A DNA stretch of 64,000 nt from a virus (IMGVR_UViG_3300014204_000018:1561-65560), one strand, 5' to 3'. Positions 3,770 through 22,430 are shown, counted from the first letter of the stretch. Numbers and translations: made by a program. Notes: generated by a model not told the origin, from the sequence alone.

Positions 3770-4071
3770 ATTACATCACCTTCCTTTTCTTTGCCGATAA
3801 TGGCAAGTGCTTCCTTCTTAGAAACAAGTTTATCAGTCAACTTCTTCCCTGACACGGTATTTACAACTTCATACCGACCGCTTCCCTTGTGAACAAGTTT
3901 AAGGGTAGGCGGTTTCCGGCGAGCAATTTTCTTTTCCGGTTCCGTCTTTTCTCCAAGTACTTCAAGAGTAGTTAAAAAAGCTTCGGGAACATTATCTGCT
4001 TCAAATGAATCGCCGGGTACGTACTTCTCACCGTTTATTCTTAAAGTTCCTGTCTTAACGCGATACCGCAT
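3766..4071 (-). CDS. small head-associated hypothetical protein
   Basis: 101 aa ORF directly after the capsid gene with good RBS. Confidence 0.55.
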   Translation of the reverse strand: MRYRVKTGTLRINGEKYVPGDSFEADNVPEAFLTTLEVLGEKTEPEKKIARRKPPTLKLVHKGSGRYEVVNTVSGKKLTDKLVSKKEALAIIGKEKEGDVI

Positions 4072-5836: not shown

Positions 5837-7378
5837 CTATTTCTTGTCGTAGCTCATTTCGGGAATCGTCAACGGTTCTTCGTTTACTTCTCCGCTGTTA
5901 TCCTGAATGTTGGCTCCGGCGTTCCCGGAAAAGTCCTCCTTCGTACCCGTCAACCTGACGATACCTTCGAGCGCGTTAATATCCATTGCGCGAAGTTGTG
6001 CTTCGGAAAAGGAGTTGTTCTTATTTGCCATAATCGTTTTGACTGCTTCTTCTTTTTTCTTACGATACATGGCAAGGCCATTAGCCAGAACGTCTCGCAT
6101 TTCGCCGGGTGCGGTAGCAATAAATTCTTCGGGCGTTTTCACTTTCGGTTCTTCCTTCTGATTACCTTTCGGTTCCGGGGTCAGTTCTGCCGCGCCTTTC
6201 TCGGCGGCTTTCTGGAGGGCTTCAATCTTTTCTTTTTTCTCACGATTAGCCGATTCCATTTCCTCTACCTTTGCGAGAACTTCCTCTGACAAGCCAAGCA
6301 GCCAGGCTTCGTCCTCTTTTTTAAAAGTTGTTTTCTCGTTCGCAATCAACTCCTTCACCCGATCAGTGCAACATCCTTTTTTCTCCATGTTCTTTACCTC
6401 CTTGTTTTGTTTTGGGTTATAAGTTATCTTTTTCACTACTTCAGAAATTTCATCCGAAACAGAAATTTCTCCATTGTCATTAAAAGAAAAGTTTCTTTTA
6501 TAAAGCTTTGGTTGTCCTGTCGGCATCGGGATTGCTTCATAAATAAAATAGTCTTCATAAATATCCACAAGGTAGTGCATGTAGGAAGAAGAATCCAGTT
6601 TGTCAATCTCAGCCTGAACTTGCGACCGTATTTCGTTATAGCTTAACGATTCACAAATAAAGAACTTCTGAAGCAATGAAATCCCGTTTTCTATTTCTCC
6701 GCTTTCAACAAAAACTTTTCCATTGTTAACTTTGAAACTACTTAAATCAACATTCTTAAACTTCATGGTTTCACCTCCTTCCTTTTTATTTGCTCTGATA
6801 CCGCAGCCATCTGAAAAGCTGCAAGCGCCGATTGAACCAGGAAGTAGGGCCAAATGATCGGGCCGAACTTCAGATATTATCCTTTCATACTCCTCCTCAT
6901 TCCATAATCCATAAACCATTTCATCTTCGGAGAACAATCCCGTTGATACTTCTACTTGTGCTTTGTTTGATAACATAGCATACAGTTCAGGATAATGCAA
7001 CTTAATTTTTTGTTCATCAATCCAAACCTCGCCTTTTAATTTTGAATCAGTAAAGGTCACGTTAAACAAGCGCCCGACTGCTACTTTATGCAAAACATCG
7101 GGAGAATTAGCGCTGATCGGAAAGCCTTCTTCCGTAACCGGATGGCCGACCGTAATAGGAACGCCGTTCCAAGTAAACGGGAACTTCGCGAGTTGATTCG
7201 CCGGATAGTAGGTAGGAATCCCATCCATGCCACAATGAACTCCTTCTTTAAGAAGAACAACAGGAGCAATCAGGTAGTCCTTTCCGTCAAGGTTTCCTCT
7301 ACGCAAGGAATAGTTGTTCATCACCATGTTAACGCAGAACTGTGTTTCCGTCACCTTCTTATTTGATTTTATTTTCAT
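5837..7378 (-). CDS. DUF2213-like prohead protease/scaffold protein
   Basis: WNGVPITVGHP, EVSTG, PDHLALLPGSIGACSFSDGCG; charged helical C-terminal scaffold region. Confidence 0.75.
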   Translation of the reverse strand: MKIKSNKKVTETQFCVNMVMNNYSLRRGNLDGKDYLIAPVVLLKEGVHCGMDGIPTYYPANQLAKFPFTWNGVPITVGHPVTEEGFPISANSPDVLHKVAVGRLFNVTFTDSKLKGEVWIDEQKIKLHYPELYAMLSNKAQVEVSTGLFSEDEMVYGLWNEEEYERIISEVRPDHLALLPGSIGACSFSDGCGIRANKKEGGETMKFKNVDLSSFKVNNGKVFVESGEIENGISLLQKFFICESLSYNEIRSQVQAEIDKLDSSSYMHYLVDIYEDYFIYEAIPMPTGQPKLYKRNFSFNDNGEISVSDEISEVVKKITYNPKQNKEVKNMEKKGCCTDRVKELIANEKTTFKKEDEAWLLGLSEEVLAKVEEMESANREKKEKIEALQKAAEKGAAELTPEPKGNQKEEPKVKTPEEFIATAPGEMRDVLANGLAMYRKKKEEAVKTIMANKNNSFSEAQLRAMDINALEGIVRLTGTKEDFSGNAGANIQDNSGEVNEEPLTIPEMSYDKK

Positions 7379-7506
7379 TCATCCTCTCCTTCCTCGTCCG
7401 GTTCTATTTCGTCGGCAGGAACCGCATTACCTTCTTCGTCAACTAAAGTAATGGATTCAATCCAATCACTAAAATCTTTTTCTTCTTCTTTGGTTAATAT
7501 ACTCAT
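7375..7506 (-). CDS. 43-aa acidic peptide translationally coupled to MuF-TopoIB (absent from ORF track)
   Basis: MSILTKEEEKDFSDWIESITLVDEEGNAVPADEIEPDEEGEDE; ATGA overlaps with both neighbours. Confidence 0.6.
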   Translation of the reverse strand: MSILTKEEEKDFSDWIESITLVDEEGNAVPADEIEPDEEGEDE

Positions 7507-9371
7507 GGTAGCCCTCCAATTATTTCCCATACCATCGGGTCGATATATGCTGACTTTGCGACGGCTGGAGTATTCTTTAAAAAATTACTTACTGTCGTCG
7601 TTACTTCCTTCACAATTTTCTTTCTCTGCTTTTCGTCAAATATTATACCTTTATTATTATACTTTGATAATTCACGCTTGGCAATAGCTGTTCCATAATA
7701 TGTTCTAAAGTCCTTAATCGTGTACTTCTTGCCTGATACCTCTTGTAAGTAGGCATTCAACTTGTCGGAATTAACATCAGGAAAAAGACTATCTTTCTTC
7801 CCTGAATAAGTTTTCTTACGTTCTTCTAAGAACGTAGCTAAAGTTTTATTTCTTATAGTATAGCTGGCCGGAACCCCTTTCTTTGCAACGAAATTTAATT
7901 TTATCTTTTCTCCTTCTACCTTAACATGACGGTTCTGTAATGTTGTCAACCCGTATGCTATCTTCTTCGTTTTTCTTTTTGATACGTTTCCAATTCTTAT
8001 TGCTGTTTCATTTTCAATTCCAAGAAGGTACGCTCTGGGGTCTTTATTCTTAATACCTAAAGCAATCTTCTTCCTTATTTGTTCTATGTCACGATTAAAG
8101 GATTTTAACTTTTCAAATTTACGTTTAGAAGAACCTGCAATCCATTCTGCCGAATATCTATATTGCAGTTCTCCTGCTGCATCTTTTCCTATCGCTTGAA
8201 TCTTTGCTTTTATATCTTTAGAAATTACTACGTCTGTCCATGCTGGAGGAATAGCAAGATTTCTTATCCTTTGTTCTTCTGCTTTTGTTAACTGAACTTT
8301 TTTACCTTTGTAAAGGATTTCTCCTTTTGTATTTCTTACGTAGTCATTACATTCCTGCGGTTTATTTGCTATGATATTTGTTATTAATGAAGTAGTAAAA
8401 CAAGGCGTATAATCAAGCGCCGATTGCATTATACGTTCTTTTTCATATTGCTGCGATTCAGGTAGAATCGGTTCATCCATAATCGCCGGAATATAAGGAA
8501 GTAGAGAACATCTGCAATTTGGTTCTCCTAAAAGTTCTCTTGCTTCTTCCCGTTCATAAACTTTGGCATGTCTTTCTCTATGGGATGCGCGAACCCTTTC
8601 GTCCTGCGCCGTCCACCATTGAACTTGTACTTCGTCGCCGATAATACCTTCTGCCGATTCATACTCATTAAGTGCTGCCTGATTATGAGAATTAATTACT
8701 TCAGTTCTTGCAATTAAAGTTCCTCTTGCTTTTCCTATCTTGTCAATTCTATCAGTAAGGTTCTTCGCTATTTGCCTTGGGTGTTTTCCTTGTGACATAC
8801 CTAAAGCAAGTTCTCTTGACATTTGGGTTGACATAGCAGAAGTAACACCTTTTAAATCAGTAAAGACGCGAGAATAAATAAGTCCTACTCTATCAGCATG
8901 AAACGGTCTATTAAAAACCGCGCTTAGAGAATCACCGCTTGGCCCGAAGGTAGGAATATCTAATCCTGCCCTGCGAAGGTCTGATCTCGCTCGTACCATC
9001 CCTTTCTGGTACGCTGATTGAATATATGTATTACTCCAAGGTTCTGCTCCTGATACCGGGCCATAGGAAGTTTCAAGAACATTTTCATCTATTTGTTCTT
9101 GTAACCAATCCATGAACTGTTCCTTCTTCCTTGTTGACCATCGGTACTCGTAATCCTCTAAAGGAATTATATTCGGCATTTCTACCGATGTCTTTTTAAC
9201 AGGAGCCAGAAAGTTTTCTTCTACTATCTTTTTTCTGACGGCAATACTTATCTTATTGAAACGAGAAATCATATCCTTAGAAAACTGACTTCTAAGGGTA
9301 ATAGTTCTCGTAGGGTCTTTGTCCTTGCCTGTTAATGCAAGGTAGATAATATTTGTTTTTAGATTTTTCAT
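7503..9371 (-). CDS. MuF/SPP1 gp7-like minor head protein fused to a C-terminal DNA topoisomerase IB
   Basis: N-terminal: IARTE...WWTAQDERVRASH...EPNCRC (MuF). C-terminal: IPPAWTDV, QYRY, IRIGN, FVAKKG, KDFRTYYGT, NTPAVAKSAYIDP (bacterial-type TopoIB). Confidence 0.9.
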   Translation of the reverse strand: MKNLKTNIIYLALTGKDKDPTRTITLRSQFSKDMISRFNKISIAVRKKIVEENFLAPVKKTSVEMPNIIPLEDYEYRWSTRKKEQFMDWLQEQIDENVLETSYGPVSGAEPWSNTYIQSAYQKGMVRARSDLRRAGLDIPTFGPSGDSLSAVFNRPFHADRVGLIYSRVFTDLKGVTSAMSTQMSRELALGMSQGKHPRQIAKNLTDRIDKIGKARGTLIARTEVINSHNQAALNEYESAEGIIGDEVQVQWWTAQDERVRASHRERHAKVYEREEARELLGEPNCRCSLLPYIPAIMDEPILPESQQYEKERIMQSALDYTPCFTTSLITNIIANKPQECNDYVRNTKGEILYKGKKVQLTKAEEQRIRNLAIPPAWTDVVISKDIKAKIQAIGKDAAGELQYRYSAEWIAGSSKRKFEKLKSFNRDIEQIRKKIALGIKNKDPRAYLLGIENETAIRIGNVSKRKTKKIAYGLTTLQNRHVKVEGEKIKLNFVAKKGVPASYTIRNKTLATFLEERKKTYSGKKDSLFPDVNSDKLNAYLQEVSGKKYTIKDFRTYYGTAIAKRELSKYNNKGIIFDEKQRKKIVKEVTTTVSNFLKNTPAVAKSAYIDPMVWEIIGGLP

Positions 9372-9373
9372 TT

Positions 9374-10750
9374 TTACACTTCAGAAGAATCAGAATCAAT
9401 ATCGTCGTCAACGTCAAGATCGTTTATATCTTCTACTTCCATTGTTCCGCGTTCATCCTCTATTTGCTCAATTTCATCCTCTGTCAAATCAATAAAATTT
9501 CTTAGGAAGAACTTAGGCGGTATCAGTCGATCAGCGCCAATCGCGTTAACATAGGAAGCAATCGCTTCGGTTTTTACTTTGCTTGTATCGGCGCGTTCTT
9601 TTTCACTTGGGGCAAACAGGTCTTCCCATTCAAAGATAAAATCATTTTTTGCCTCTGGAAGTACTCCAAGAGAAATAAGTCTATTGACAAAAGGATAGAG
9701 AATCATAGGAGTAACGTAGTTTTCCCTTCGCTCTGCTATTTTGTTATTCCAATTTGTTTCGTCTTGACTACTTGCAAGTTCTCCCCGTTCAGAACCTAAA
9801 AGAATCCTTTGCGGTATCTCGGTAGCACCAGAAATTAAACTGACAATAACTTTAAAGTGACCTTCTGGACTTGCTACCTGTTGCGCTAAGTTCTCTATTG
9901 TCATTCCTTGCGCCCGAATATACCTTCTCAATCCGTGAATATATTCTTCAATTTCTGTTTCTAAAGCAGATAGTGTTTGTGCCGTTACGTTTGCTTCCTT
10001 GTCAAGCATAAAACCATATCCCGGAAAAGCACCGCGCCAGAACATTTCAGCGCCGCCTCCAGAAATCAGTTCTATATCGTTAAGACGATTGAGAACACAC
10101 TTTAAACGAGGCGTACCGTAAATATCATTTTCTTCTAAGTCCTCTGCTATATGAAGTACTCTTGAATAATGAACGGATAATTGTCGATTAATCTTAGAAC
10201 TCGTTTTAGTAGAAGACACACTTATCTTATATGTTAAAGGAAGTCCGAACCTTTCATTTTTCGTATCTTCTTCATAGGTTTCTATATCAGCATTACTTTC
10301 GGTATAGGGCCGAACATAAAGAAGTTTTCTATTACTACCCATGACCGGCTTTGATAGGTCGCCGCCATCGTCAAATCCCATGAGTAGAACGCCGTAGCTG
10401 CCGATTCCAGACAGTTTATCAATACGGGATAGGTAATGATAGATATTGTACTTTACAACAAAACTATTCCACTCCTTCTCCAGTTCTGTTTCTTCTGCGT
10501 CGTTCTCAACAAGAATTGGAAATTTTCTCCAAGTAGCAGAAACAGGAGCAGAAACAATTCTTTTAGCAATATCTTGACGAGAATACTTCGCGTAGTAGTC
10601 GTCAAACGTCGGCGTCTTTGTATATCCAAGTGCTTCATATAAATCGCGAACCGTTCCAAAGCTTTTACCCATCTTTGCCATTGCTGCCGCCCGTTCAATA
10701 AGAACGCTGGCAAGGTTCCGTAGTTGAAGCATTTCGCTTTTTTCTTCCAT
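9374..10750 (-). CDS. portal protein (DUF1073-like)
   Basis: 458 aa between terminase and MuF; IPQRILLGSERGELASSQD motif. Confidence 0.8.
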   Translation of the reverse strand: MEEKSEMLQLRNLASVLIERAAAMAKMGKSFGTVRDLYEALGYTKTPTFDDYYAKYSRQDIAKRIVSAPVSATWRKFPILVENDAEETELEKEWNSFVVKYNIYHYLSRIDKLSGIGSYGVLLMGFDDGGDLSKPVMGSNRKLLYVRPYTESNADIETYEEDTKNERFGLPLTYKISVSSTKTSSKINRQLSVHYSRVLHIAEDLEENDIYGTPRLKCVLNRLNDIELISGGGAEMFWRGAFPGYGFMLDKEANVTAQTLSALETEIEEYIHGLRRYIRAQGMTIENLAQQVASPEGHFKVIVSLISGATEIPQRILLGSERGELASSQDETNWNNKIAERRENYVTPMILYPFVNRLISLGVLPEAKNDFIFEWEDLFAPSEKERADTSKVKTEAIASYVNAIGADRLIPPKFFLRNFIDLTEDEIEQIEDERGTMEVEDINDLDVDDDIDSDSSEV

Positions 10751-10765
10751 TGCTTTCTCCTATGT

Positions 10766-11566
10766 TTACAATCTTTGATTCTCTTTAAGTTTTCTGGCCC
10801 TGAATAATGACCGTTGATTATCAATAGCAAAGGGCGAAGAACAAATATAATTTGCAAATATTTTTCTACCCATAGCAAATATTCTTAGTTGCTCTAAAGA
10901 TATTTTTCGCTCTTCCTTTGTGCGTCCGTATTTAAAATATTCTTTAAGCATCGCTGGCAGGTAGGTGTAAATGCCGATATGCTTAAATATAAATTTGTTG
11001 CCGTTTATCTCTTGCCTTCCATTACGAAAAAAACCGATTGCTTCTATCGGCTCTCCTTCGCTATTTATATTTCTATTTATAATAACCTTGACAGTATCAA
11101 CATCTGAAAATTCGTCAACGCAAACAGGGCAAAACAAAGTTCCTATTCCTTCCCTTAATAATTTTCTATTAAAGTCAACAGAACTTCTTAAATGAAAAGG
11201 AGAAAGTCCTACCATATCTCCTTGTACGTTTACAATTAAGTTATCGTCATTGTCTAAAAGCCCTAAGTACTTTGCTGCTTCGTAAACCCTTTCTGTTCCG
11301 TTACCTACCTCTTTTGAAATTACAATCCAAGAAGTAACAGGAAAGTAGTCGTCAACAATCCCATATTCAGAAGAACAAATCCGGCAGTACTCCTTAAACA
11401 TCCTAAATGTCCATTGGTCTGAAACAATATAAACACGATCAAAAACACCGGACGCTTTCACTTCTTCATAAGTATGAAGGATAAGCGGTTTTGTTCCGAT
11501 TATTTTCATCGGCTTATTTGGAAGCCTTCTACTATTTAATCTTGTCGGAATAATTGCTACTTTCAT
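10766..11566 (-). CDS. kdsB: CMP-KDO synthetase-like cytidylyltransferase
   Basis: IIPTRLNSRRLPNKP, GTERV, VNVQGD, KHIGIY, LEQLR motifs of KdsB. Confidence 0.8.
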   Translation of the reverse strand: MKVAIIPTRLNSRRLPNKPMKIIGTKPLILHTYEEVKASGVFDRVYIVSDQWTFRMFKEYCRICSSEYGIVDDYFPVTSWIVISKEVGNGTERVYEAAKYLGLLDNDDNLIVNVQGDMVGLSPFHLRSSVDFNRKLLREGIGTLFCPVCVDEFSDVDTVKVIINRNINSEGEPIEAIGFFRNGRQEINGNKFIFKHIGIYTYLPAMLKEYFKYGRTKEERKISLEQLRIFAMGRKIFANYICSSPFAIDNQRSLFRARKLKENQRL

Positions 11567-11599
11567 TTCTTTCTCCTCCTATGGTTAAAGAGTTAATAA

Positions 11600-11689
11600 C
11601 TAACAGCCGCCTTTTTTCCCGCCTATCTTCCTACCTTGCGGTTTCGATGTTCCTCTACCCTTCGGGCCTTTTCCATCTTTGTTTGGCAT
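11600..11689 (-). CDS. 29-aa Gly/Lys-rich micropeptide
   Basis: MPNKDGKGPKGRGTSKPQGRKIGGKKGGC with AGGAGG RBS upstream; absent from ORF track. Confidence 0.5.
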   Translation of the reverse strand: MPNKDGKGPKGRGTSKPQGRKIGGKKGGC

Positions 11690-11703
11690 TATTCTTCCTC
11701 CTT

Positions 11704-13260
11704 TTAATTTTGCGAACCCCAAATTCCTGCCTTCGCCTTTGTTCTAAAAAGCCAATTATAAGCGCCCGAAGCAGCATCCCATTGATCTTTAAATTCTCCT
11801 CTGGGCGCACGTTCATGTTCATCAATAAATTCTTGTGTCCAGGCTGAAGGAAGTAGTTCTACCATACCGTTCTCCACTGCCGACTGATACGGTTCACTTC
11901 TTATTTCTTTGTCGCCGGTAGGTCTATCAGTATGAACAACATGACCGCCTAAATTCCTAACCGTATATTCAGCAGATTCCTTCCCTCCAGACCCAGGTTC
12001 TTGTTCTACTACTATTGGTATATTTAATCCGGGCCATCGTTTACTATCAATATCCGCGCATTGTCGGATTCTTTTTTCTCTTGTAGCAGCAGACCATTGC
12101 CCCTTCTGTACGTCGATTATTCGTACCTTCCCACTTTTCATTAAGAGCATAAGGACGCCAGCACTTCTTTTCCCGCCGTCCTCTGTCGCCGCTTTATCCC
12201 AGTATCTAACTGCTTCTTGAATCATATTACTACCAGGAATATTTATTCCTTCCGTTATAAATTCTTCTACCTTAAAGATACCACCACCGCGCGGCGAAGG
12301 TCTTTGCTGAAGTTGTCCTGCTCTGGAGTACTCCGTCATTCGTGTTTCTAATTTTTTAAGGCGAGAATGGGGGTAGCGCAAACAGTCAAGCGGTTCACCT
12401 TCTTGACTCCTTGGGTCTTGAAAAACCAAAGGAGTTGCCGTCTTTAAAGAAAGTTCTCGCTCCTTCTCAAACCTTGCGGGTAGGATAAGCTTAACTAAAT
12501 TGTCTATCTCCCCATTCTCTGCCTTCTTAATGATATGACCACAAAGGTCGGCGTAATGAGTTCTCTGTGCTATTACTACATAAGAACCATTCTCTTCATC
12601 ATTAAGACGAGTTGACATTGTTTCATCCCACCAAGTAAGTGTTTCACTTCTTATGGCATCTGATTCTGCCATCCTTACATTATGCGGGTCGTCGCAAACT
12701 ATTCTATCGCCACCTTCTCCGGTTCCCATACCTCTTACTGACGTAGCAATACGGTATCCAGTCTTATCATTATCATATCTTGTTTTCTGATTCTGATCAG
12801 AAGTAATTTTAAAGTTATCGCCCCAGCACTTCTGATACCAATCAGATTGAATTATTCTTCTTGACTTTAAAGCATCACGTGTTGAAAGTCCTTGATCATA
12901 AGAAGAATAAATATAACGTAGGTATGCAAGATTCTTTGGCCCCCATTCCCAGGTAGGCCAAAGAACAGAAACAAGTAAACTTTTAGTATGCCGAGGAGGA
13001 ATATTTATTATAAGGTAGTGAATTTGATTTGCTGTTACTGCTTCAAGATGTTCGCATATAGCATCATGGTGCCAGTTCCAGAAAAGTTCTCGCTTTGGTT
13101 CTAATAAAGGCCAACATTGCTTCGCATATATCCGAAGACTTTTTTCTGCCTTTATCGTTTCTATCAATTCAAGGGAAGGAAGTTCATTCCTAAAAAAATC
13201 AAGAAAAGGAAAAGGCATTTTAGTCGTTGACTTTTTGGAGTATGTCTGCAAGTCGATCAA
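11704..13260 (-). CDS. terL: terminase large subunit
   Basis: INIPPRHTKS Walker A, IVCDDPH Walker B, LQQRP, WDKA and DQWDA nuclease motifs. Confidence 0.92.
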   Translation of the reverse strand: MIDLQTYSKKSTTKMPFPFLDFFRNELPSLELIETIKAEKSLRIYAKQCWPLLEPKRELFWNWHHDAICEHLEAVTANQIHYLIINIPPRHTKSLLVSVLWPTWEWGPKNLAYLRYIYSSYDQGLSTRDALKSRRIIQSDWYQKCWGDNFKITSDQNQKTRYDNDKTGYRIATSVRGMGTGEGGDRIVCDDPHNVRMAESDAIRSETLTWWDETMSTRLNDEENGSYVVIAQRTHYADLCGHIIKKAENGEIDNLVKLILPARFEKERELSLKTATPLVFQDPRSQEGEPLDCLRYPHSRLKKLETRMTEYSRAGQLQQRPSPRGGGIFKVEEFITEGINIPGSNMIQEAVRYWDKAATEDGGKRSAGVLMLLMKSGKVRIIDVQKGQWSAATREKRIRQCADIDSKRWPGLNIPIVVEQEPGSGGKESAEYTVRNLGGHVVHTDRPTGDKEIRSEPYQSAVENGMVELLPSAWTQEFIDEHERAPRGEFKDQWDAASGAYNWLFRTKAKAGIWGSQN

Positions 13261-15107: not shown

Positions 15108-15291
15108 TAAGTTAGTTCCCTTTTAGAAAGTATGAGAGATTAAAAACTTTCATACTTTCAATAAATGGAATTAATTTTTTTAAGTCCATTTTAAGTCAAC
15201 CGTGTTATAATTTTAACAAACAACTAAGCGAGAACGTATGGCGAATTAAACTTGTCTGCTGCCATACGTGATCATATTTTTGAAAAGTTTA
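15108..15291 (+). repeat. 184-bp circularly permuted copy (A-B order) of 15950-16133 (B-A order)
   Basis: Block A 15108-15227 = 16014-16133; block B 15228-15291 = 15950-16013. Confidence 0.85.
15196..15211 (+). promoter_or_regulatory. extended -10 promoter motif TCAAsCGTkwTATAAT (also 16102-16117, 30787-30802, 39663-39678)
   Basis: Shared 16-bp motif ending in TATAAT upstream of four plus-strand gene starts. Confidence 0.55.
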
Positions 15292-15446
15292 AACGATATA
15301 GAAATTCACGAAGGCACAATTTCTGAAATATTTATGAATGATGACGACTTCTCTATTGTATTAGAAAAATAAAACCTTAAACTTTCCTTTGCATTTATAC
15401 GCTTAAAAGATAGAAGAACAATAACCCTAACCAAAGGAGGAAGAAA

Positions 15447-15764
15447 ATGAAAATTATTACCGATCATAAGTGGAAAGCTTTCTGTTCTTGTGATAAAGTT
15501 CCGAAAAAAGTTCTACATGATTATTTTTCGCATGTTAAAGATGATTACGGTTTTTTCAAGTATAAAAAAAACTGGTATCATGTATCTGATTTTATGCGAA
15601 TAGAAAAAAACAGTCCTCTTGCTGGCCTTGGATTTGATGGTTATTCTTCAGATTCATTTTTTTCTGGTGTGTTAATTAAACTTGATCATTATGAAGAAAG
15701 TTATCAAGTAGGAACTTATATCTCTTTCTATCGTATGATCATTATGAAGAAAGTTATCAAGTAG
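15447..15764 (+). CDS. hypothetical early protein
   Basis: AAGGAGG RBS; 3' end affected by a 40-bp duplication. Confidence 0.65.
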   Translation: MKIITDHKWKAFCSCDKVPKKVLHDYFSHVKDDYGFFKYKKNWYHVSDFMRIEKNSPLAGLGFDGYSSDSFFSGVLIKLDHYEESYQVGTYISFYRMIIMKKVIK

Positions 15765-15775
15765 GAACTTATATC
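15683..15775 (+). repeat. 40-bp direct repeat (15683-15722, 15736-15775)
   Basis: tgatcattatgaagaaagttatcaagtaggaacttatatc occurs twice. Confidence 0.9.
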
Positions 15776-15805: not shown

Positions 15806-16021
15806 ATGAAAACTTTTAAGGCAATAAAAGAAAAAGAAATTGTCTATCATCTTATGACAATTAATAAGCATAGCCCCGACAATAGAAGGTTCCTTTTCAA
15901 AAGAATTAAAAATCTCAAAAATAAAAGTCTCGTAGCGTATTATCAAGCAGCGAGAACGTATGGCGAATTAAACTTGTCTGCTGCCATACGTGATCATATT
16001 TTTGAAAAGTTTATAAGTTAG
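15806..16021 (+). CDS. hypothetical protein
   Basis: 71 aa ORF with RBS; its 3' end is block B of the permuted repeat. Confidence 0.55.
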   Translation: MKTFKAIKEKEIVYHLMTINKHSPDNRRFLFKRIKNLKNKSLVAYYQAARTYGELNLSAAIRDHIFEKFIS

Positions 16022-16145
16022 TTCCCTTTTAGAAAGTATGAGAGATTAAAAACTTTCATACTTTCAATAAATGGAATTAATTTTTTTAAGTCCATTTTAA
16101 GTCAACCGTGTTATAATTTTAACAAACAACTAAAGGAGGAGAAAA

Positions 16146-16490
16146 ATGTCAATTACATTAGAACAGGCGAAAAATCTTCGGTATGGTCAAATTATTTATT
16201 ATAAGCATCACAAAAATTCCGATGGTTCTTTGCAAAAATGGAAGGTAAACGGAAAAGTCAAAACTTGGAAGAAAGACGAATCAAAAGTCAAGGTTCCTTT
16301 AAAGCATGGACTTAGAAGTTATGGATATGTTACCGAATCAAATCTTGACTGTTTCTTCAGTTTTGAGGATGCTAAATTTGAAGTCACAAATTGTCTTTTC
16401 AATAGAAATAATAATCCTCATTTAATTGGAAAAGTTTATAACAGTCCACCTTCCTATTTAAAATTGAGAGTTTTTTTCGTCTATTCGTAA
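16146..16490 (+). CDS. hypothetical early protein
   Basis: AAGGAGGAG RBS, 114 aa. Confidence 0.7.
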   Translation: MSITLEQAKNLRYGQIIYYKHHKNSDGSLQKWKVNGKVKTWKKDESKVKVPLKHGLRSYGYVTESNLDCFFSFEDAKFEVTNCLFNRNNNPHLIGKVYNSPPSYLKLRVFFVYS

Positions 16491-16495
16491 TATGC

Positions 16496-16577
16496 AATCC
16501 CGTTAAGTCTTGTGCGTGTAGAACGTCCCAGGGACGTTCTACAGTCGGGTTTTTCGGTTGACGGCAAGAGGTCAACC
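16496..16577 (+). ncRNA. circularly permuted pistol ribozyme candidate, copy 1 (predicted cleavage G16544/U16545)
   Basis: CCCG-UUAAG-UCUUGU-GCG-[P3]-GU-CGGG, then hairpin GGUUGAC-gGCAAGAg-GUCAACC. Confidence 0.75.
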
Positions 16578-16603
16578 ATAACAAACAACATAAGGAGGAG
16601 AAA

Positions 16604-16816
16604 ATGAAAGAAGTAATGAAAAGAAAAATTGACTACCGTGACGACATTCTTTGGCGGCTATCGAAAACTTATAAGGAAGATAGCATGACGCATCAGTATG
16701 TCAAAAAAGGACTTATGAAATTGACAGAAAGTGAAATGTCTTCTTTATATGCGATGGTTCTGACTTCTACAACATTAGGAGAAGTGGTCATAAAAGAAAA
16801 GGCAAGGAAGAAATAA
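16604..16816 (+). CDS. hypothetical protein
   Basis: RBS within the repeat element, 70 aa. Confidence 0.7.
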   Translation: MKEVMKRKIDYRDDILWRLSKTYKEDSMTHQYVKKGLMKLTESEMSSLYAMVLTSTTLGEVVIKEKARKK

Positions 16817-16886
16817 ATCCCTTTAGGTCTTGTGCGGGGGCGCGAAAGCGCCCTGTAGGGAGTTCAGTCAAGAGCAAGAACTTGAC
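16814..16886 (+). ncRNA. permuted pistol ribozyme candidate, copy 2 (G16855/U16856)
   Basis: UAAAU-CCCU-UUAGG-UCUUGU-GCG-GGGGCGCgaaaGCGCCCU-GU-AGGG...GUCAAG-aGCAAGAa-CUUGAC. Confidence 0.75.
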
Positions 16887-16918
16887 AAAACTAAACAACT
16901 TAACAAAAGGAGGAGAAA

Positions 16919-17134
16919 ATGAAAAAGATTGTTATTACTCTTGGTAGAAATGGTTCTGTGAAAGCAGAAGCAGTTGGCTTTGTCGGCCCTGCCTGTCAAG
17001 ATGCAACTAAATTTCTTGATGGTATTTTCAAGGGAAAGAAGGAAGACCTTCTTAAACCTGAATACTATGAAGAAAATAAAAGTACATCTTTTGAAATTGA
17101 CGGCTTGCCGGGCGGAGGGAGGTTCTGTGGATAA
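16919..17134 (+). CDS. DUF2997-like protein
   Basis: GSVKAEAVGFVGPACQDATKFL...LKPEYY pattern; linked to DUF1257 and AAA genes. Confidence 0.7.
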   Translation: MKKIVITLGRNGSVKAEAVGFVGPACQDATKFLDGIFKGKKEDLLKPEYYEENKSTSFEIDGLPGGGRFCG

Positions 17135-17333
17135 ACTAATCTTTGGCAGAACATGGGAAGAGATACAAACAATGCAGCAAAAAAAGTATAAACCAAAAAT
17201 AATTGACACAAAAAAAGAAGGTGATTACGGCTGCGACCCACTTGGAAACGGAAAATTTAAAATGGTTCCAAGTGGAGACATTGTATCTCTTGAAGAAATG
17301 AAAAAAAGATTAAACAAAGGAGAACAAAAATGA
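17127..17333 (+). CDS. hypothetical protein (GTG start)
   Basis: MDKLIFGRTWEEIQ...; GGAGGG RBS. Confidence 0.55.
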   Translation: MDKLIFGRTWEEIQTMQQKKYKPKIIDTKKEGDYGCDPLGNGKFKMVPSGDIVSLEEMKKRLNKGEQK

Positions 17334-17695
17334 GTCACGTTTCTACCTATGAGGCAAGAATCAGTTACCTTGAACTTTTTAAACAAGCGGCAATTTCTAA
17401 GGGATATACTACCAAAGAAAAAACAACAGTAAATCTTTTTGGTAGAAATAACGTTGAAGCAGAACTGGCAATTCAGTTGCCCGGCTGGCGTTATGATGTT
17501 GCCGTGACCAAAGAAGGTGAAATTAAATATGACTTTTTTGGTTCTCAAAAAGGCGAAGGTATTTTTGAGCAACTCGGAGAACTAATTCAGGATTATAACT
17601 ACTTCGAGTTGATGGATAAGACACCTTGGGAATATCAAAAAAATGAATATACTGAGAAGAACGGCGACAAGGTAATTGAGATATTTCTTGATTGA
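17330..17695 (+). CDS. DUF1257 (Ycf35-like) protein
   Basis: MSHVSTYEARI N-terminus typical of DUF1257. Confidence 0.7.
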   Translation: MSHVSTYEARISYLELFKQAAISKGYTTKEKTTVNLFGRNNVEAELAIQLPGWRYDVAVTKEGEIKYDFFGSQKGEGIFEQLGELIQDYNYFELMDKTPWEYQKNEYTEKNGDKVIEIFLD

Positions 17696-17892
17696 ATAAC
17701 AAACAGAAAGGAAAAAAGATGCCAAGAGCAATTATCATTTCAAAAAAAGGGTCGGACGAAGAAATTAGAACTACGTTTGATATTAACTGGTACAAAGAAA
17801 AATCAATTCCTATTCGTTATAATGAATATGCCGATCATGTAGAAATTCGGCATCAAGAAAAAGAAAAAATGATTTATGAACTTTTCAAATAA
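17692..17892 (+). CDS. hypothetical protein
   Basis: ORF between DUF1257 gene and repeat copy 3. Confidence 0.5.
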   Translation: MNNKQKGKKMPRAIIISKKGSDEEIRTTFDINWYKEKSIPIRYNEYADHVEIRHQEKEKMIYELFK

Positions 17893-17962
17893 ATCCCTTT
17901 AAGTCTTGTGCGGGGGCGCGAAAGCGCCCCGTAGGGAGTTCCGCTTGAAGCAAGAATCAAGC
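17890..17962 (+). ncRNA. permuted pistol ribozyme candidate, copy 3 (G17931/U17932)
   Basis: UAAAU-CCCU-UUAAG-UCUUGU-GCG-GGGGCGCgaaaGCGCCCC-GU-AGGG...GCUUGA-aGCAAGAa-UCAAGC. Confidence 0.8.
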
Positions 17963-17993
17963 AAAACTAAACAACTTAACCAAAGGAGGAGAA

Positions 17994-19433
17994 ATGAAAA
18001 ACGACGCGAAGAACATTGTCAATTATTTGAGAGCAGGCTTTTCTTGTTTTTGGGTAGTAACACAAGAACCGCATCGGGTTGACAAAGAAGTAATGGAATT
18101 GATTACTTCATATCAACCGAAAAATGGCGAACAATGGAAAGTACTTCCTTGGCGCTGTTCTACACAAGACAGAGATATGCAAGACCCTGCTAAAGTCTTG
18201 CATCGTCTTGAATCAGAAGAACAAAGGACAGTTTATTTTCTACATAACTTTAACTGGTTTGTGGAAAAAAATAAACTTCTCGTTCAGATAGTTCAAGATT
18301 CTTTTTCTGTCTGGGCCAATCAAGGAAAAGCGATTGTAGTCATTTCGATGTCAGCTACGATTCCGATAGAGTTGCAAAAATATTTCACTTTATTGGAATT
18401 ACCTCTTCCCGACGACGATGCGTTAAAAAGTTGCTATGATAAAGCGACCGGAAACGCGCCGAAGGAAATGCTTCCAAAGACTGAATGCGAAAAGAAAAAA
18501 ATCGTTCAGGCAGCAAGAGGGTTGACAGCGAACGAAGCAGAAAATTGTTTTTCCCTGTCTCTTATAGAACATGGGAATTTGTCTGCTTCTACTATAAATG
18601 ATTACAAAGCGCAAACAATCCAAAAAAGTGGGTTCTTGGAAGTAATATATCCAAACAAAACTTTCCAAAATATTATTGGTTATAACGAGTTCAAGCAATC
18701 AATAAAAGAAAGTTTTAATGACCCGAGAACTAAAGGAAGTCTGTTAATAGGTGGCCCTGGGACTGGTAAAACGTCTTTGCTTTATTGTCTCGCTGGCGAG
18801 TTCAAACATACTTTGGTTCTGAAGGTAGTAATTGGAAAATTATTTTCAAAGTATGTAGGCGAGACGGATGCGAACGTTGACTATGTAATTCAACTTATCA
18901 GCCGTTTGGGTTCTAATGTTACTTTGATAATTGACGAGTTCGAGAAGCAGTTCGCAGGTGTCGGTTCTTCAGGAGAACATGACAGCGGTGTTAGTAAACG
19001 AGCAAATTCCCGCTGGCTTGAATTTTTTCAAGATAGACCGGAAGGTATTAAAGTATATGGTACGGCAAATTCTTTTAAAGGAATACCGCCCGAATATTTA
19101 AGAGCAGGAAGGTGGGATACAGCGCCGTATTATGTAGGTCTTCCAAACGTCGAAACGAAAAATGCAATCTTGCATTACTATCTTGATAAAAATGGAATTA
19201 AAAAACAAAGTAAAAAAGTTCCTGCTATGAACCGATGGACGGGGGCTGATATAGAAGCAATGGTTAATATCGCATCTATTAGAAATTTAAGTTTAACTGA
19301 TGCGGCAACTTTTATCAGACCCCAAGCAATAACTCATAAGGAAGAAATTGACGCGCTTGAAAAGTGGGCAGAAAGTAATTGCATTCCGGCTGAAAAGGCG
19401 ATCACTACTTCCAATAGAAAACTTGACGTTTAA
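17994..19433 (+). CDS. AAA+ ATPase, Ycf46/SpoVK-like
   Basis: GGPGTGKT Walker A, IIDEFEK Walker B, LFSKYVGETD, LRAGRWD, WTGADIE. Confidence 0.88.
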   Translation: MKNDAKNIVNYLRAGFSCFWVVTQEPHRVDKEVMELITSYQPKNGEQWKVLPWRCSTQDRDMQDPAKVLHRLESEEQRTVYFLHNFNWFVEKNKLLVQIVQDSFSVWANQGKAIVVISMSATIPIELQKYFTLLELPLPDDDALKSCYDKATGNAPKEMLPKTECEKKKIVQAARGLTANEAENCFSLSLIEHGNLSASTINDYKAQTIQKSGFLEVIYPNKTFQNIIGYNEFKQSIKESFNDPRTKGSLLIGGPGTGKTSLLYCLAGEFKHTLVLKVVIGKLFSKYVGETDANVDYVIQLISRLGSNVTLIIDEFEKQFAGVGSSGEHDSGVSKRANSRWLEFFQDRPEGIKVYGTANSFKGIPPEYLRAGRWDTAPYYVGLPNVETKNAILHYYLDKNGIKKQSKKVPAMNRWTGADIEAMVNIASIRNLSLTDAATFIRPQAITHKEEIDALEKWAESNCIPAEKAITTSNRKLDV

Positions 19434-19503
19434 ATCCCTTTAAGTCTTGTGCGGGGGCGCGAAAGCGCCCCGTAGGGAGTTCCGCTTGAAGCAAGAATCA
19501 AGC
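19431..19503 (+). ncRNA. permuted pistol ribozyme candidate, copy 4 (G19472/U19473)
   Basis: Identical to copy 3 over the structured region. Confidence 0.8.
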
Positions 19504-19535
19504 AAAACTAATAACCACTAATAAGGAGGAGAAAA

Positions 19536-20513
19536 ATGAAAGTAATCGGCGTAGGTAGTTCTTTTAAAGGTAAAAGCGTTCATTTGGTTTTAGGTCAACG
19601 AGAAGGCGTTAAAAAGAATCAATGCTTCTGTGACAAGAGAACCAAAAACTTGATTGTGCTACCAAAGTTAACTGTAGCAGACGTTACTTGTGCAAAATGC
19701 AAAAGGTCGAAGACATATAAAGAAATGCTGGATGCAATGAATGCAAGTAAACCAGTAAGGCCCGAACCTATAAAAGAACTACCAAAAAAAGTAGAAGAGA
19801 AACAGCAAGATTTACCTCTTGAAATAAAGAAGGAAAAAGAACTTAAAGAGCTAAACGAGTTCAAGCTTTATCAACAAACCGATGAAAAATTTTCTATCAG
19901 GCATGTTCCTTCTGATAAAATATTTTTCAAATCTCTTGATGAAGCACTCGCGATTGCTATTGTCGAAAAGCTAAACCGTTTAACGGTTGGCTGGGACGGC
20001 AAAGGTTCTATTCCGAAAGCCTTCCTTTCTTTGTGTCTTGATATTTTCAAGAAAGCGCATCAAGAATTATCTTTAGCACTTCCTGTTAAATATCAAGAAC
20101 GCGAAAAAGAATATGAAAAAAAAGATGAAGAACAAAAAGAGAAGGAAGAAAAAGCCGGACGTAAATTGACTCGGCGTGGTGTCAAGAAAGGCAAGGAAAA
20201 ATCGGAAATAAAAATTTCAAGAAGGGAAAAATATCTTGCGCGTTCTACGTCTCAAATAACAATAGCAAGACCGATTAAAAGAAGAACAAAAAATCCGACA
20301 CAACTAATTCGGTCACAACTTGTTAAAGGTAACACCTTCAGCGAACTTGTTTACAGTTTAATAAATGAGTTCGGGCTTTCTGAAATAAGAGCCAGAGCAA
20401 GGTTTAAGGCAATTATAAGAAAGCTATCAAGAGTTCAAGGAAGACGTATTGAACATACCTTTGGAAAAAATCACCTTGACGACTTCTACAAGTTTAAAAT
20501 TGAAAAAGAATAA
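19536..20513 (+). CDS. hypothetical protein with N-terminal Cys motif and charged coiled region
   Basis: H..C.C..C..C pattern (VTCAKC); RBS in the repeat element. Confidence 0.65.
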   Translation: MKVIGVGSSFKGKSVHLVLGQREGVKKNQCFCDKRTKNLIVLPKLTVADVTCAKCKRSKTYKEMLDAMNASKPVRPEPIKELPKKVEEKQQDLPLEIKKEKELKELNEFKLYQQTDEKFSIRHVPSDKIFFKSLDEALAIAIVEKLNRLTVGWDGKGSIPKAFLSLCLDIFKKAHQELSLALPVKYQEREKEYEKKDEEQKEKEEKAGRKLTRRGVKKGKEKSEIKISRREKYLARSTSQITIARPIKRRTKNPTQLIRSQLVKGNTFSELVYSLINEFGLSEIRARARFKAIIRKLSRVQGRRIEHTFGKNHLDDFYKFKIEKE

Positions 20514-20592
20514 ATCCCTTTAAGTCTTGTGCTGGAAGGTAGTAGAAATACTACCTTCCGTAGGGAGAACGGTTGACGGCAAGAGGTCAACC
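20511..20592 (+). ncRNA. permuted pistol ribozyme candidate, copy 5 (G20560/U20561; GCU instead of GCG)
   Basis: CCCU-UUAAG-UCUUGU-GCU-GGAAGGUAGUAgaaaUACUACCUUCC-GU-AGGG...GGUUGAC-gGCAAGAg-GUCAACC. Confidence 0.7.
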
Positions 20593-20618
20593 ATAACAAA
20601 CAACATAAGGAGGAGAAA

Positions 20619-20918
20619 ATGAAATTGCATGAAAAAATGAGGAAGTTTTCTGACGACGATTTTAAAGAATTTTCCGGGTGCCTGTCAAAAAGTCCTATGC
20701 TATGTAGAGAAGGTCTTGTCATTATAGATAATGGCAAGAAAATAACTGCTTCTATAATCCTTGACTTTGCAGAAATACAAATAGAAGCAGATGAATTTAC
20801 TCTATATAGAAAAATGATTCATAAGATAGCAGCTAAAGAACTAATAAATATGCTGCTTTCTTATCCTCCACTTAAAAAAAGTTATTATCTATCAGTCCTT
20901 AACTTTTCAGAAGTATAA
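20619..20918 (+). CDS. hypothetical protein
   Basis: RBS in the repeat element, 99 aa. Confidence 0.65.
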   Translation: MKLHEKMRKFSDDDFKEFSGCLSKSPMLCREGLVIIDNGKKITASIILDFAEIQIEADEFTLYRKMIHKIAAKELINMLLSYPPLKKSYYLSVLNFSEV

Positions 20919-20962
20919 AAGTAGATGTCAAATACAAAATCAACTTACGATAAGGAAAAAAC

Positions 20963-21124
20963 ATGCAACATATCTGTGATACTTGCAATAAGAAAAAAGA
21001 TGAAAAGAGAATGAAACGGTGTCCAAAGTGTAAAAAGTGGCATTGCAAAAATCATTACGGGAACGAAGAAGAATGTCATGTTTGTATATACTCGGAATTG
21101 TGCAATGCAATTAGAAGAAGTTGA
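20963..21124 (+). CDS. 53-aa Cys/His-rich zinc-finger-like protein (absent from ORF track)
   Basis: MQHICDTCN...CPKCKKWHCKNH...CHVC. Confidence 0.55.
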   Translation: MQHICDTCNKKKDEKRMKRCPKCKKWHCKNHYGNEEECHVCIYSELCNAIRRS

Positions 21125-21248
21125 AATAACCATTTAGAAGAAAGCAGTGAGTAGTAAATGAAATATCATACTGCCCTTCTCCTGTGAAAGGAGGAGGGCG
21201 GATATGGTGGTTCATTTAATACAACAACGACAACAAAAGGAGGAGTTG

Positions 21249-21458
21249 ATGAAGAAGAAGACAGGCTTGGATAAAGACCAAAAGGACTTTATAAAAAACA
21301 AGGTAAAAGAAATCGGCAGCCAGAAGGGAGTTAACAAGTTTTATTTTTCAGACGACGCCGTTTCAAAGTACGCAAAGTCAATTTCTGAAAAATTAAAACT
21401 GCCCGAAGGTATAGAAATAAAACGAAGAAAAAAGAAATGGAAAAATAAATCCCTTTAG
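21249..21458 (+). CDS. small basic hypothetical protein
   Basis: AAGGAGGAG RBS before ATG at 21249. Confidence 0.55.
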   Translation: MKKKTGLDKDQKDFIKNKVKEIGSQKGVNKFYFSDDAVSKYAKSISEKLKLPEGIEIKRRKKKWKNKSL

Positions 21459-21526
21459 GTCTTGTGCGGGGAAGCAGTAGTAATACTGCTTCTCGTAGGG
21501 AGTTCAGTCAAGAGCAAGAACTTGAC
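21446..21526 (+). ncRNA. permuted pistol ribozyme candidate, copy 6 (G21495/U21496)
   Basis: CCCU-UUAGG-UCUUGU-GCG-GGGAAGCAGUAguaaUACUGCUUCUC-GU-AGGG...GUCAAG-aGCAAGAa-CUUGAC. Confidence 0.75.
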
Positions 21527-21560: not shown

Positions 21561-22430
21561 ATGAAAAAAGTTGATTTGAGAGAAGACGGCGTTTTGTGCT
21601 TATTGAGAATCGGTGTATGGCAGGCAAGGCATAATCTTGACGTTAAAAGAATTAACAAAGATGCGCCGCGAGAAATTCTACGCGCATCACAAAGTCTTTT
21701 AACTGATAGAAATGTTATCAAAGAATTTACTTCGGTAGCAAAAGAAGCTAAAAACTTTGTTATGCTTAATTCCGTACCGCATCCGATTCCGGGCATGACT
21801 TGGATACCTAAAGAAGATATTGTTAGGATAGACAAAAAACTTTCAGAAATTTCTGAGAGATATTCTTCTTTAGCTATGGAATTATCAAAAGGCATTGACA
21901 AAGAACGGGAAAAATATAAAAAGAAGTATCCCGAATATTATGATGCCAGTAGGTATCCATCGGAAAAAGAAATAATGAATAAGTTTTATATCCGCTGGCA
22001 ATTCTTTGAAGTTGATTTGCCTGGAAAATTAAAACTGGGTAACGCAAAAATCTATCAGAAGGAAAAGGAAAAGGCCGATAAGATAAAAAATGAAATAGAA
22101 GAAATGACCTTAAACCTTTTCGGGAATATGATCATTGCAAGACTAAATAAGCTAAATAGTCAATGCGATTCAGGCAAGACGAATCAAGGTACTATAAACG
22201 CCATAAACAAACTTCTCGAAAAATGGGAAAAACTTTGGTCGCCGCATATAGAAGAACAGAAATTTCGCATGGCAATGTTAAGGATAAAACGAGACATGAA
22301 AAGAATTTCTGCCGAACAATTAAAAACAAACGACGATCTAAGAAGTGAAATTCAAAAAAGAACAGAGGGGGTAATCAATAAAATTAAGAACGTACCTAAC
22401 TTTAGCTTGTATAGGTCATTAGATATTTAA
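21561..22430 (+). CDS. DUF3150-like helical protein
   Basis: True start likely 21561 (RBS in the repeat element); helical pattern recalled from DUF3150-type proteins that accompany phage AAA modules. Confidence 0.5.
   Translation: MKKVDLREDGVLCLLRIGVWQARHNLDVKRINKDAPREILRASQSLLTDRNVIKEFTSVAKEAKNFVMLNSVPHPIPGMTWIPKEDIVRIDKKLSEISERYSSLAMELSKGIDKEREKYKKKYPEYYDASRYPSEKEIMNKFYIRWQFFEVDLPGKLKLGNAKIYQKEKEKADKIKNEIEEMTLNLFGNMIIARLNKLNSQCDSGKTNQGTINAINKLLEKWEKLWSPHIEEQKFRMAMLRIKRDMKRISAEQLKTNDDLRSEIQKRTEGVINKIKNVPNFSLYRSLDI

Follow-up and report, generated by a model that had tools for sequence, protein, structure and literature searches.

Six probable circularly permuted pistol ribozymes located between the early genes of a virus genome

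The subject of this analysis is an array of six intergenic elements in the early region of a virus genome, which we have compared with the pistol class of self-cleaving ribozymes. The window, i.e. the whole stretch of 64,000 nucleotides (nt) that has been analysed, comprises bases 1561-65560 of a 65,560-bp virus record of IMG/VR (IMGVR_UViG_3300014204_000018) with direct terminal repeats. The six elements, 74-85 nt in length each and all of them on the + strand, are located within positions 16493-21526, where they delimit units of 1-4 genes over 5.4 kb; copy 3 lies directly upstream of the gene of an AAA ATPase (17994-19433), and copy 6 lies upstream of a DUF3150 gene (21561-22430).

The six elements share one layout, which is described here with the names of the pistol structural elements. 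The 5′ half consists of the linker J1/2, (A)UAAAU, the strand P2a, CCCU (CCCG in copy 1), then UUARG, the pseudoknot strand UCUUGU, GCG (GCU in copy 5) and the hairpin P3, while the 3′ half consists of GU, the strand P2b, AGGG (CGGG in copy 1), a linker of 4-6 nt and a hairpin of 6-7 bp with the loop R-GCAAGA-R, which we refer to as P1. Each of these 3′ hairpins is followed by an A/C-rich leader, GGAGGAG and an ATG. P2a starts at 16499, 16819, 17895, 19436, 20516 and 21451, and the J1/2 consensus AUAAAU stays 5′ of P2a; in copies 2-6, the upstream gene has its stop codon within it. P3 is 7 or 11 bp long and has four unrelated sequences over the six copies; the stem of P1 has three. An earlier, sequence-only reading of this DNA had listed six copies at 16496, 16814, 17890, 19431, 20511 and 21446, all of which are found there on the + strand, and the layout that it had given them is correct overall, except for the GCG of copy 5, which reads GCU. 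The individual copies are the following:

16493-16577, + strand: copy 1, the most diverged, with the linker remnant CAAU; P2a CCCG at 16499-16502, UUAAG, UCUUGU at 16508-16513, GCG at 16514-16516, P3 of 11 bp, predicted cut G16544/U16545, P2b CGGG at 16546-16549, linker UUUUUC, P1 GGUUGAC/GUCAACC at 16556-16577 with loop G-GCAAGA-G; held-out model score 48 bits.

16813-16886, + strand: copy 2, in which AUAAAU includes the stop codon of the open reading frame (ORF) at 16604-16816; P2a at 16819-16822, UUAGG (G at position 32), GCG, P3 of 7 bp with one G-U pair, predicted cut G16855/U16856, P2b at 16857-16860, P1 GUCAAG/CUUGAC at 16867-16886 with loop A-GCAAGA-A; Rfam Pistol score 21.5 bits.

17889-17962, + strand: copy 3, the exemplar; J1/2 at 17889-17894, P2a at 17895-17898, UUAAG at 17899-17903 (equivalents of A32 and G33 at 17902 and 17903), pseudoknot strand at 17904-17909, equivalents of G40-C41-G42 at 17910-17912, P3 at 17913-17930, predicted cut G17931/U17932, P2b at 17933-17936, linker at 17937-17942, P1 at 17943-17948 paired with 17957-17962, loop AGCAAGAA at 17949-17956; Rfam Pistol score 27.1 bits, score with the model of the copies themselves 102.5 bits.

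19430-19503, + strand: copy 4, which begins at the stop codon of the ATPase gene and whose core and P1 are identical to those of copy 3; predicted cut G19472/U19473; Rfam Pistol score 29.1 bits.

20510-20592, + strand: copy 5; P2a at 20516-20519, GCU in place of GCG with U at the G42 position (20534), P3 of 11 bp, predicted cut G20560/U20561, P1 of 7 bp at 20571-20592; score with the model of the copies themselves 84 bits.

21445-21526, + strand: copy 6; P2a at 21451-21454, UUAGG, P3 of 11 bp, predicted cut G21495/U21496, P1 at 21507-21526 with the same stem as in copy 2; Rfam Pistol score 24.0 bits.

Six exact occurrences of the 13-mer TTARGTCTTGTGC are counted in the window as well as in the whole 65,560-bp genome, on the + strand only, and the reversed pattern that served as control does not occur at all. 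A covariance model built from copies 2-6 gives copy 1, which had been held out, a score of 48 bits (E about 5e-8), with nothing else in the window scoring above 13 bits. The same six copies are present in a second assembly of the same phage (99.98% identical; L198), and contigs from sequencing runs of landfill, the probable source, and of groundwater are identical where they cover the region, adding no variation; among the runs listed as containing the sequence there is no RNA run. Public short-read assemblies of this phage break exactly at the element repeats. The copies are also mosaics: P1 and the leader (55 nt) are 100% identical in copies 1 and 5 (16555-16609 and 20570-20624), which differ in P2 and P3, and copies 2 and 6 have P1 in common and a different P3, a make-up that suggests recombination or gene conversion among modules.

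The gathering threshold of the Rfam Pistol model (RF02679) is 34.5 bits, and a scan of the window at the Rfam gathering thresholds gives no match, Pistol included. Under permissive settings, Pistol is the top-ranking family for four of the copies (2, 3, 4 and 6), at 21.5-29.1 bits, and the alignment with its model runs column by column through the AUAAAU linker, P2a, UUARG, the pseudoknot strand, GCG, P3, GU and P2b, with the P1 segment being deleted; copies 1 and 5 have no match to the model at E up to 10. Canonical pistols are scored by the same model at 38.6-57 bits in a related phage and at 38.6-62.6 bits across other phages, and the shortfall of the six elements is explained by the missing 5′ P1 hairpin, since the deficit is about the contribution of P1. 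The expectation of the sequence-only reading that a model of canonical order would miss these elements is in line with these scores, and the element-by-element match of the core to the env25 pistol that it had described is recovered by the model from J1/2 to P2b in the four copies.

The nucleotides of the active site are also those of a pistol. The purine at position 32 is A in four copies (UUAAG) and G in two (UUAGG), an alternation that occurs naturally at this position and agrees with the purine-32 rule (PMC6154101). G33 and C41 are present and paired in 6/6 copies (G15-C23 of the alignment), as is G40, while G42 is present in 5/6; the 2-nt GU junction follows P3 in all six, and the length of this junction is strictly conserved in the class (PMC4604425). 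Nearly the same core, CCCUUUAGG-N6-GCG...GGUAGGG, is found in canonical pistols of the loci L129 and L150. In relation to the canonical pistol (RF02679; env25 structure 5K7C; Weinberg 2015; Harris 2015, PMC4604425), the six elements are alike in the P2-enclosed core, UUARG, the 6-nt pseudoknot strand, G40-C41-G42, P3, the GU junction with the predicted cleavage site, a hairpin loop that would supply the pseudoknot partner, the AUAAAU that precedes P2a and the intergenic location in phages. They differ in that P1 comes after P2b, the P1 loop has 8 nt (R-GCAAGA-R) instead of 6, J1/2 is 1 nt shorter and is not tethered to P1, and the score is under the gathering threshold.

The position of P1 has been examined with a descriptor that is blind to the pseudoknot sequence. 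In 6/6 copies, the complement of the pseudoknot strand is located in a hairpin loop at +13/+14 after P2b, and within 70 nt upstream no hairpin-borne partner occurs in any of the six, the sole upstream complement being a weak GCAAGG at -17 in copy 2. Among the 25 cores that the same descriptor finds in 1.8 Mb of other viral DNA, 15 have the partner upstream, 3 are P1-less and 7 are without a partner; a downstream hairpin partner occurs in one of the 25, weak and at +50. The absence of an upstream partner, together with the complementary loop of the 3′ hairpin in every copy, therefore leads to the order J1/2, core, linker, P1; compared with the canonical P1, J1/2, core, the parts are rotated. 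A 5′ P1 hairpin that is joined to P2a by an A-rich linker, as in the canonical order, is absent, with P1 being located 4-6 nt 3′ of P2b. In canonical connectivity, the 3′ strand of P1 leads through J1/2 to P2a, whereas here P2b leads to the 5′ strand of P1; the predicted local fold is the same. The sequence-only reading had rightly located P1 3′ of P2, with the complement in the 3′ hairpin loop, while the break, which it had placed within J1/2, has to be moved to the junction of the 3′ strand of P1 and J1/2, because AUAAAU is retained 5′ of P2a. The A-rich tail, which it had counted as part of the element, is the usual translation leader; the candidate of a J1/2 remnant at this tail has been rejected, as the same leader follows the hammerheads of relatives, and an upstream P1 inside the preceding coding sequence has been rejected as well, given that there is no hairpin partner within 70 nt.

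Circular permutations occur among the small ribozymes in hammerhead types I-III and in twister P1, P3 and P5; those of the hammerhead have long been known, with type II being itself a circular permutation. The elements that are described here likewise keep their helices and conserved nucleotides, with the 5′-to-3′ order being rotated. For the pistol, an engineered permutation named CPP (Mustafina et al. 2021, ACS Synth Biol), as far as it is described in PMC10103173 and PMC10353319, joins P2b to P1 by a flexible linker and is active. It resembles our elements in that the native 3′ end (P2b) is linked to the native 5′ end (P1); according to the same descriptions, it is synthetic and has its new ends in loop 3, whereas in our elements P3 is closed and the ends lie between P1 and J1/2.

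The fold has been assessed in the model-fitted alignment, where standard pairs fill 99.2% of the pair cells, a proportion that falls to 40-52% if the partners are displaced by 1-3 columns. Both nucleotides of the pair have changed in 5/6 P1 pairs, 3/4 outer P3 pairs and 1/5 P2 pairs. In five copies, P2 is CCCU/AGGG and can be lengthened to UCCCU/AGGGA, and copy 1 has CCCG/CGGG; 96.7% of the P2 cells are paired, with one compensatory pair. Unconstrained RNAfold recovers P2, P3 and P1 in 6/6 copies and leaves both pseudoknot strands unpaired (z -2.4 to -5.7). The six pseudoknot pairs UCUUGU:GCAAGA, the last of which is G-U, are present in all six copies and do not vary. P1, P3 and P2 are supported by covariation among the aligned copies, while the putative pseudoknot draws its support from complementarity and position. 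The compensatory change of P2 in copy 1 and the unrelated but paired sequences of the central hairpin (four) and of the last hairpin (three), all of which had been noted by the sequence-only reading, are found in the alignment with changes on both sides; the complementarity of the 6-bp GCAAGA/UCUUGU pseudoknot that it had proposed holds in 6/6 copies, with the pairing being invariant.

From the match of the core, the rotated order and the covarying helices, we consider it likely that the six elements are natural circularly permuted pistols. They would divide an early transcript of several genes into separate messages, each of which is bounded by a hairpin on either side.

The same junctions have been compared in related phages, i.e. 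in loci that were gathered through alignment of the neighbouring AAA ATPase, a protein with more than 1300 homologues; the ATPase sequence alone retrieved none of them. The related loci have the same early region (DUF2997, ATPase, DUF3150, helicase, primase), with gaps of about 100 nt. Type II hammerheads above the Rfam threshold are found in 8 of 10 loci (30 in total), with more in L151 and L154, and in seven loci a type II hammerhead is located directly upstream of the ATPase gene, which is the slot of copy 3. Locus L180 carries five canonical pistols, and L152, L153 and L190 carry P1-less pistols, in which the partner strand is located directly 5′ of P2a and there is no P1 stem; the P1-less pistol of L190 has the identical pair AGCAAGAA/UCUUGU, and that of L152 has a different pair, GCAGAU/AUCUGU. 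The core and the operon context of the P1-less pistols are as in the six elements; the difference is that they have a 1-nt spacer to P2a and a compact H-type pseudoknot, whereas the elements here have a 3′ hairpin. In the closest relative, L188, a 1.5-kb contig with a 63%-identical ATPase, the end of a hammerhead precedes the ATPase gene, and the stop codon of this gene is followed by the start of the counterpart of copy 4 (TTTAAAT-CCCA-TTAAG-TCTTGT-GCG), of which the first 35 nt are present before the contig ends. As for the neighbouring genes, a protein search with the 325-amino-acid gene between copies 4 and 5 matches only itself, and the DUF3150 gene has one 40%-identical relative, L197, without pistols.

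Hammerhead arrays are known from prophages (Perreault et al. 2011, PMC3088659), and like those of the relatives (L151, L154, L157, L160, L163, L164, L167 and L169), they lie on the coding strand in gaps of about 100 nt. They start at or after a stop codon and are followed by a leader and a Shine-Dalgarno sequence, as in the elements here, with a hairpin at both product ends, as would be expected of these elements as well, and they occupy the same slots, e.g. upstream of the ATPase gene; it is the ribozyme class that differs. Hammerhead arrays that flank single prophage genes cut polycistronic transcripts of about 2 kb in vitro (PMC3088659). Since relatives hold hammerheads, canonical pistols or P1-less pistols in these gaps, a self-cleaving RNA is the expected occupant, and the ribozyme class is, judging by the loci compared, interchangeable. 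Of the indirect arguments for activity of the six elements, this slot occupancy is the strongest.

Several further observations have been made in the related loci. The canonical pistols of L180 (3661-9768) have a different pseudoknot each (of those readable: UCCAGA, UCAUGA, CUCAAA and CUAUGA), while one pseudoknot sequence is common to the six permuted copies, as one is common to two P1-less copies of L152. L152, a 56%-identical relative, also has a third repeated intergenic structure (1500-1570, 2530-2598, 2925-2985 and 3362-3425), which consists of a long outer stem, an asymmetric internal loop of AACGC or UCG opposite UCAUGA or UCAU, and a covarying hairpin of 10-12 bp; it begins at stop codons, is followed by the usual leader and matches no Rfam family at E up to 0.5, and it may be another ribozyme class or a variant. 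The nucleotides C3 and G8 of the hammerhead pair with each other. At 3690-3775 and 4225-4305 of L152, and upstream of 933 in L153, there are structures similar to type II hammerheads, below the Rfam thresholds, with the core UUGAUAAG in place of CUGAUGAG, which may be a covarying U3-A8 variant. Locus L129, from an unrelated phage (IMG/VR 3300029389_000052; 6116-12236, minus strand), has a canonical pistol of 62.6 bits, a hammerhead-like match and five twister-P1-like matches of 24-64 bits, all under the threshold of 67.2, in a densely ribozyme-punctuated operon.

Other permuted copies have been searched for in several collections. A scan of IMG/VR with P2 fixed and the pseudoknot free returned 26 stretches, about 10 of them canonical pistols and none permuted; with the pseudoknot fixed and P2 free, it returned 5, namely one P1-less pistol (L190) and chance matches. 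With the pattern ATAAAT-N4-5-TTAAG-N6-GCG, the matches listed for IMG/VR were mostly due to chance, along with a few canonical pistols. The J1/2-CCC prefix with a free pseudoknot gave two chance matches in JGI metagenomes and likewise two in the genomes of 185,579 species. The covariance model of the permuted copies had no matches in about 1.3 Mb of other loci, and in the close relatives its matches were weak and partial, though the P1-less pistols of L152 were recognised by way of them. A set of 50,697 phage records was queried by BLAST with one copy and with the 8-kb region, and nothing relevant was returned. The permuted form thus looks rare. As for the literature, natural circular permutation is found only in hammerhead and twister in a 2023 survey of RNA permutations (PMC10085705), and the papers available in full text, i.e. 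those outside subscription-only journals, report no natural permutation of the pistol and only the engineered CPP scaffold, in agreement with the sequence-only reading, which knew of no such description.

A number of points weigh against the assignment of the six elements as active permuted pistols. No second complete example is present in the IMG/VR, JGI and 185,579-species scans or in the 1.8 Mb of relatives. Tolerance of a break between P1 and J1/2 is presumed, the engineered permutation being opened in loop 3 instead. The pseudoknot is identical in the six copies and lacks covariation, and the chance of a match for one 8-nt loop is roughly 1 in 100. In the loop of P1, the pairing hexamer is flanked by an additional purine at either end (A..A or G..G); these purines are absent from the canonical pistols that were examined here and could disturb the stacking between P1 and the pseudoknot. 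The products could be held together by P2 and the pseudoknot (10-11 bp) after the cut and be released slowly. Lastly, copy 5 has U at the G42 position; mutation of G42 lowers the activity of the env25 pistol (PMC6154101), and by analogy copy 5 may be a weakened ribozyme.

Some of these points are shared by the rival explanation that survives best, though we regard it as unlikely: the elements would be derived from pistols and no longer cleave, serving as structured punctuation in the form of stabilising hairpins, nuclease sites (e.g. for RNase III) or protein-binding sites. It would accommodate the scores of all copies below the Rfam threshold, with two copies having no match at all, the missing covariation of the pseudoknot, the G42U of copy 5, the purines that flank the loop hexamer and the great rarity of the permuted form in the collections searched. 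However, UUARG, GCG and GU are invariant or vary as permitted (A/G at position 32), while the stems drift with compensation, and fixed catalytic nucleotides beside compensated stems therefore suggest selection on an active site and not on hairpins alone; in addition, the relatives keep intact ribozymes at the same slots.

It is less plausible still that the cores are active but do not work with their own 3′ hairpin. They would then act either in P1-less fashion or by pairing, across the intervening gene, with the P1 loop of the copy before, an arrangement equivalent to the canonical order with an insert the size of a gene; in both cases the 3′ hairpin would be mainly a 5′ stabiliser of the next message. 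As the pseudoknot is identical and P2 almost identical in all copies, any loop fits any core, and P1-less pistols exist in the relatives; in those, however, the partner is located directly 5′ of P2a, where the present elements have only the weak GCAAGG of copy 2. Moreover, copy 1 has no copy upstream and copy 6 has no core downstream, yet both are locally complete, and a partner that is 13 nt away would outcompete one that is 200-1500 nt away during transcription. That the resemblance to the pistol is a coincidence of a repeated intergenic promoter or terminator cassette is hardly credible: although six homologous repeats amount to roughly one observation for the invariant parts, Pistol is the top Rfam family for four copies with full-length core alignments, three helices covary in elements that contain no promoter or terminator signal, and canonical pistols of other phages (L129 and L150) have nearly the same core.

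The proposed permuted pistols have also been considered in the context of their transcript, with regard to which one more feature has to be introduced:

16109-16117, + strand: extended -10 promoter-like site TGTTATAAT, located inside a conserved repeat, with a second copy at 15203.

Between 16117 and 24286 no other extended -10 site is found on the + strand, and promoter-like or terminator-like sites show no excess inside the array. The site at 16109 probably starts the transcript that carries all six elements, because it is the last extended -10 site on the + strand before 24286, and a single polycistronic RNA across the six elements would be the simplest reading. The surrounding repeat is a unit of roughly 190 nt that is present in two copies (15108-15298 and 15949-16138; 96-98% identical), with two blocks in swapped order; one block contains a 10-bp hairpin (GAAAGTATGA...TCATACTTTC), an AT-rich tract and the extended -10 site CCGTGTTATAAT, a promoter-like string that is also found in the relative L152. 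These units are probably early promoters. Upstream of the array, at the end of the ORF 15447-15764, there is an exact 40-nt tandem duplication (15683-15722 and 15736-15775, spacing 53 nt).

According to the mechanism that we propose, the early polycistronic RNA, probably from the promoter at 16109, would carry the six elements, each of which would cut between G and U. The P3 hairpin, carrying a 2′,3′-cyclic phosphate, would form the 3′ end of the upstream message about 45-55 nt past the stop codon, and a 5′-OH, P2b and the hairpin P1 would open the downstream message, ahead of the A/C-rich leader and the strong Shine-Dalgarno sequence. Seven units would result: 16146-16490; 16604-16816; 16919-17892 (four genes); the ATPase gene; 19536-20513; 20619-21458 (three genes); and DUF3150 onward. 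In the canonical order P1 would stay with the upstream product, whereas the permuted elements would give P1 to the downstream message, so that their products would be built like those of the type II hammerheads of the sister phages. Cleavage by the six elements is predicted from their sequence, and stabilisation of the messages by their terminal hairpins is a hypothesis that the architecture suggests. Within the unit that precedes copy 6, a hairpin at 21173-21200 (CUGCCCUUCUCC-UGUGAA-AGGAGGAGGGCGG) buries a Shine-Dalgarno-like AGGAGGAGGG just before the ATG at 21204, and a second, unstructured Shine-Dalgarno site precedes the ATG at 21249 in the same frame; this hairpin may be a translational control element or mark an alternative start.

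Because all copies share P2 and the pseudoknot, the two ends of each released message are complementary (10-11 bp): the released RNA would have P2b and the P1 loop at its 5′-OH end, and P2a, the pseudoknot strand and P3 at its 2′,3′-cyclic-phosphate end. A speculative extension, to which we give little credence, is that these ends pair and rebuild the active site of the pistol around the nick, leading to closed-loop messages or, by the reverse reaction, to circular mRNAs. Were this the case, the permuted order and the pseudoknot common to all copies would both have been adapted to the joining of ends, while the pistols of L180 each differ in their pseudoknot. The same idea was proposed by Perreault et al. 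for hammerhead arrays, and such products were not detected (PMC3088659).

For the pistol, only one natural order of parts is on record. If the six elements are indeed natural permuted pistols, they would demonstrate that the pistol fold can accommodate a break between P1 and J1/2, account for the under-counting of pistols in phage genomes by homology models and supply engineers with a scaffold optimised in nature, as an alternative to the synthetic CPP. The phage family in which they occur swaps type II hammerheads, canonical pistols, P1-less pistols and, on our assignment, permuted pistols at the same junctions, and would thus be a good system for studying the role of ribozyme punctuation.

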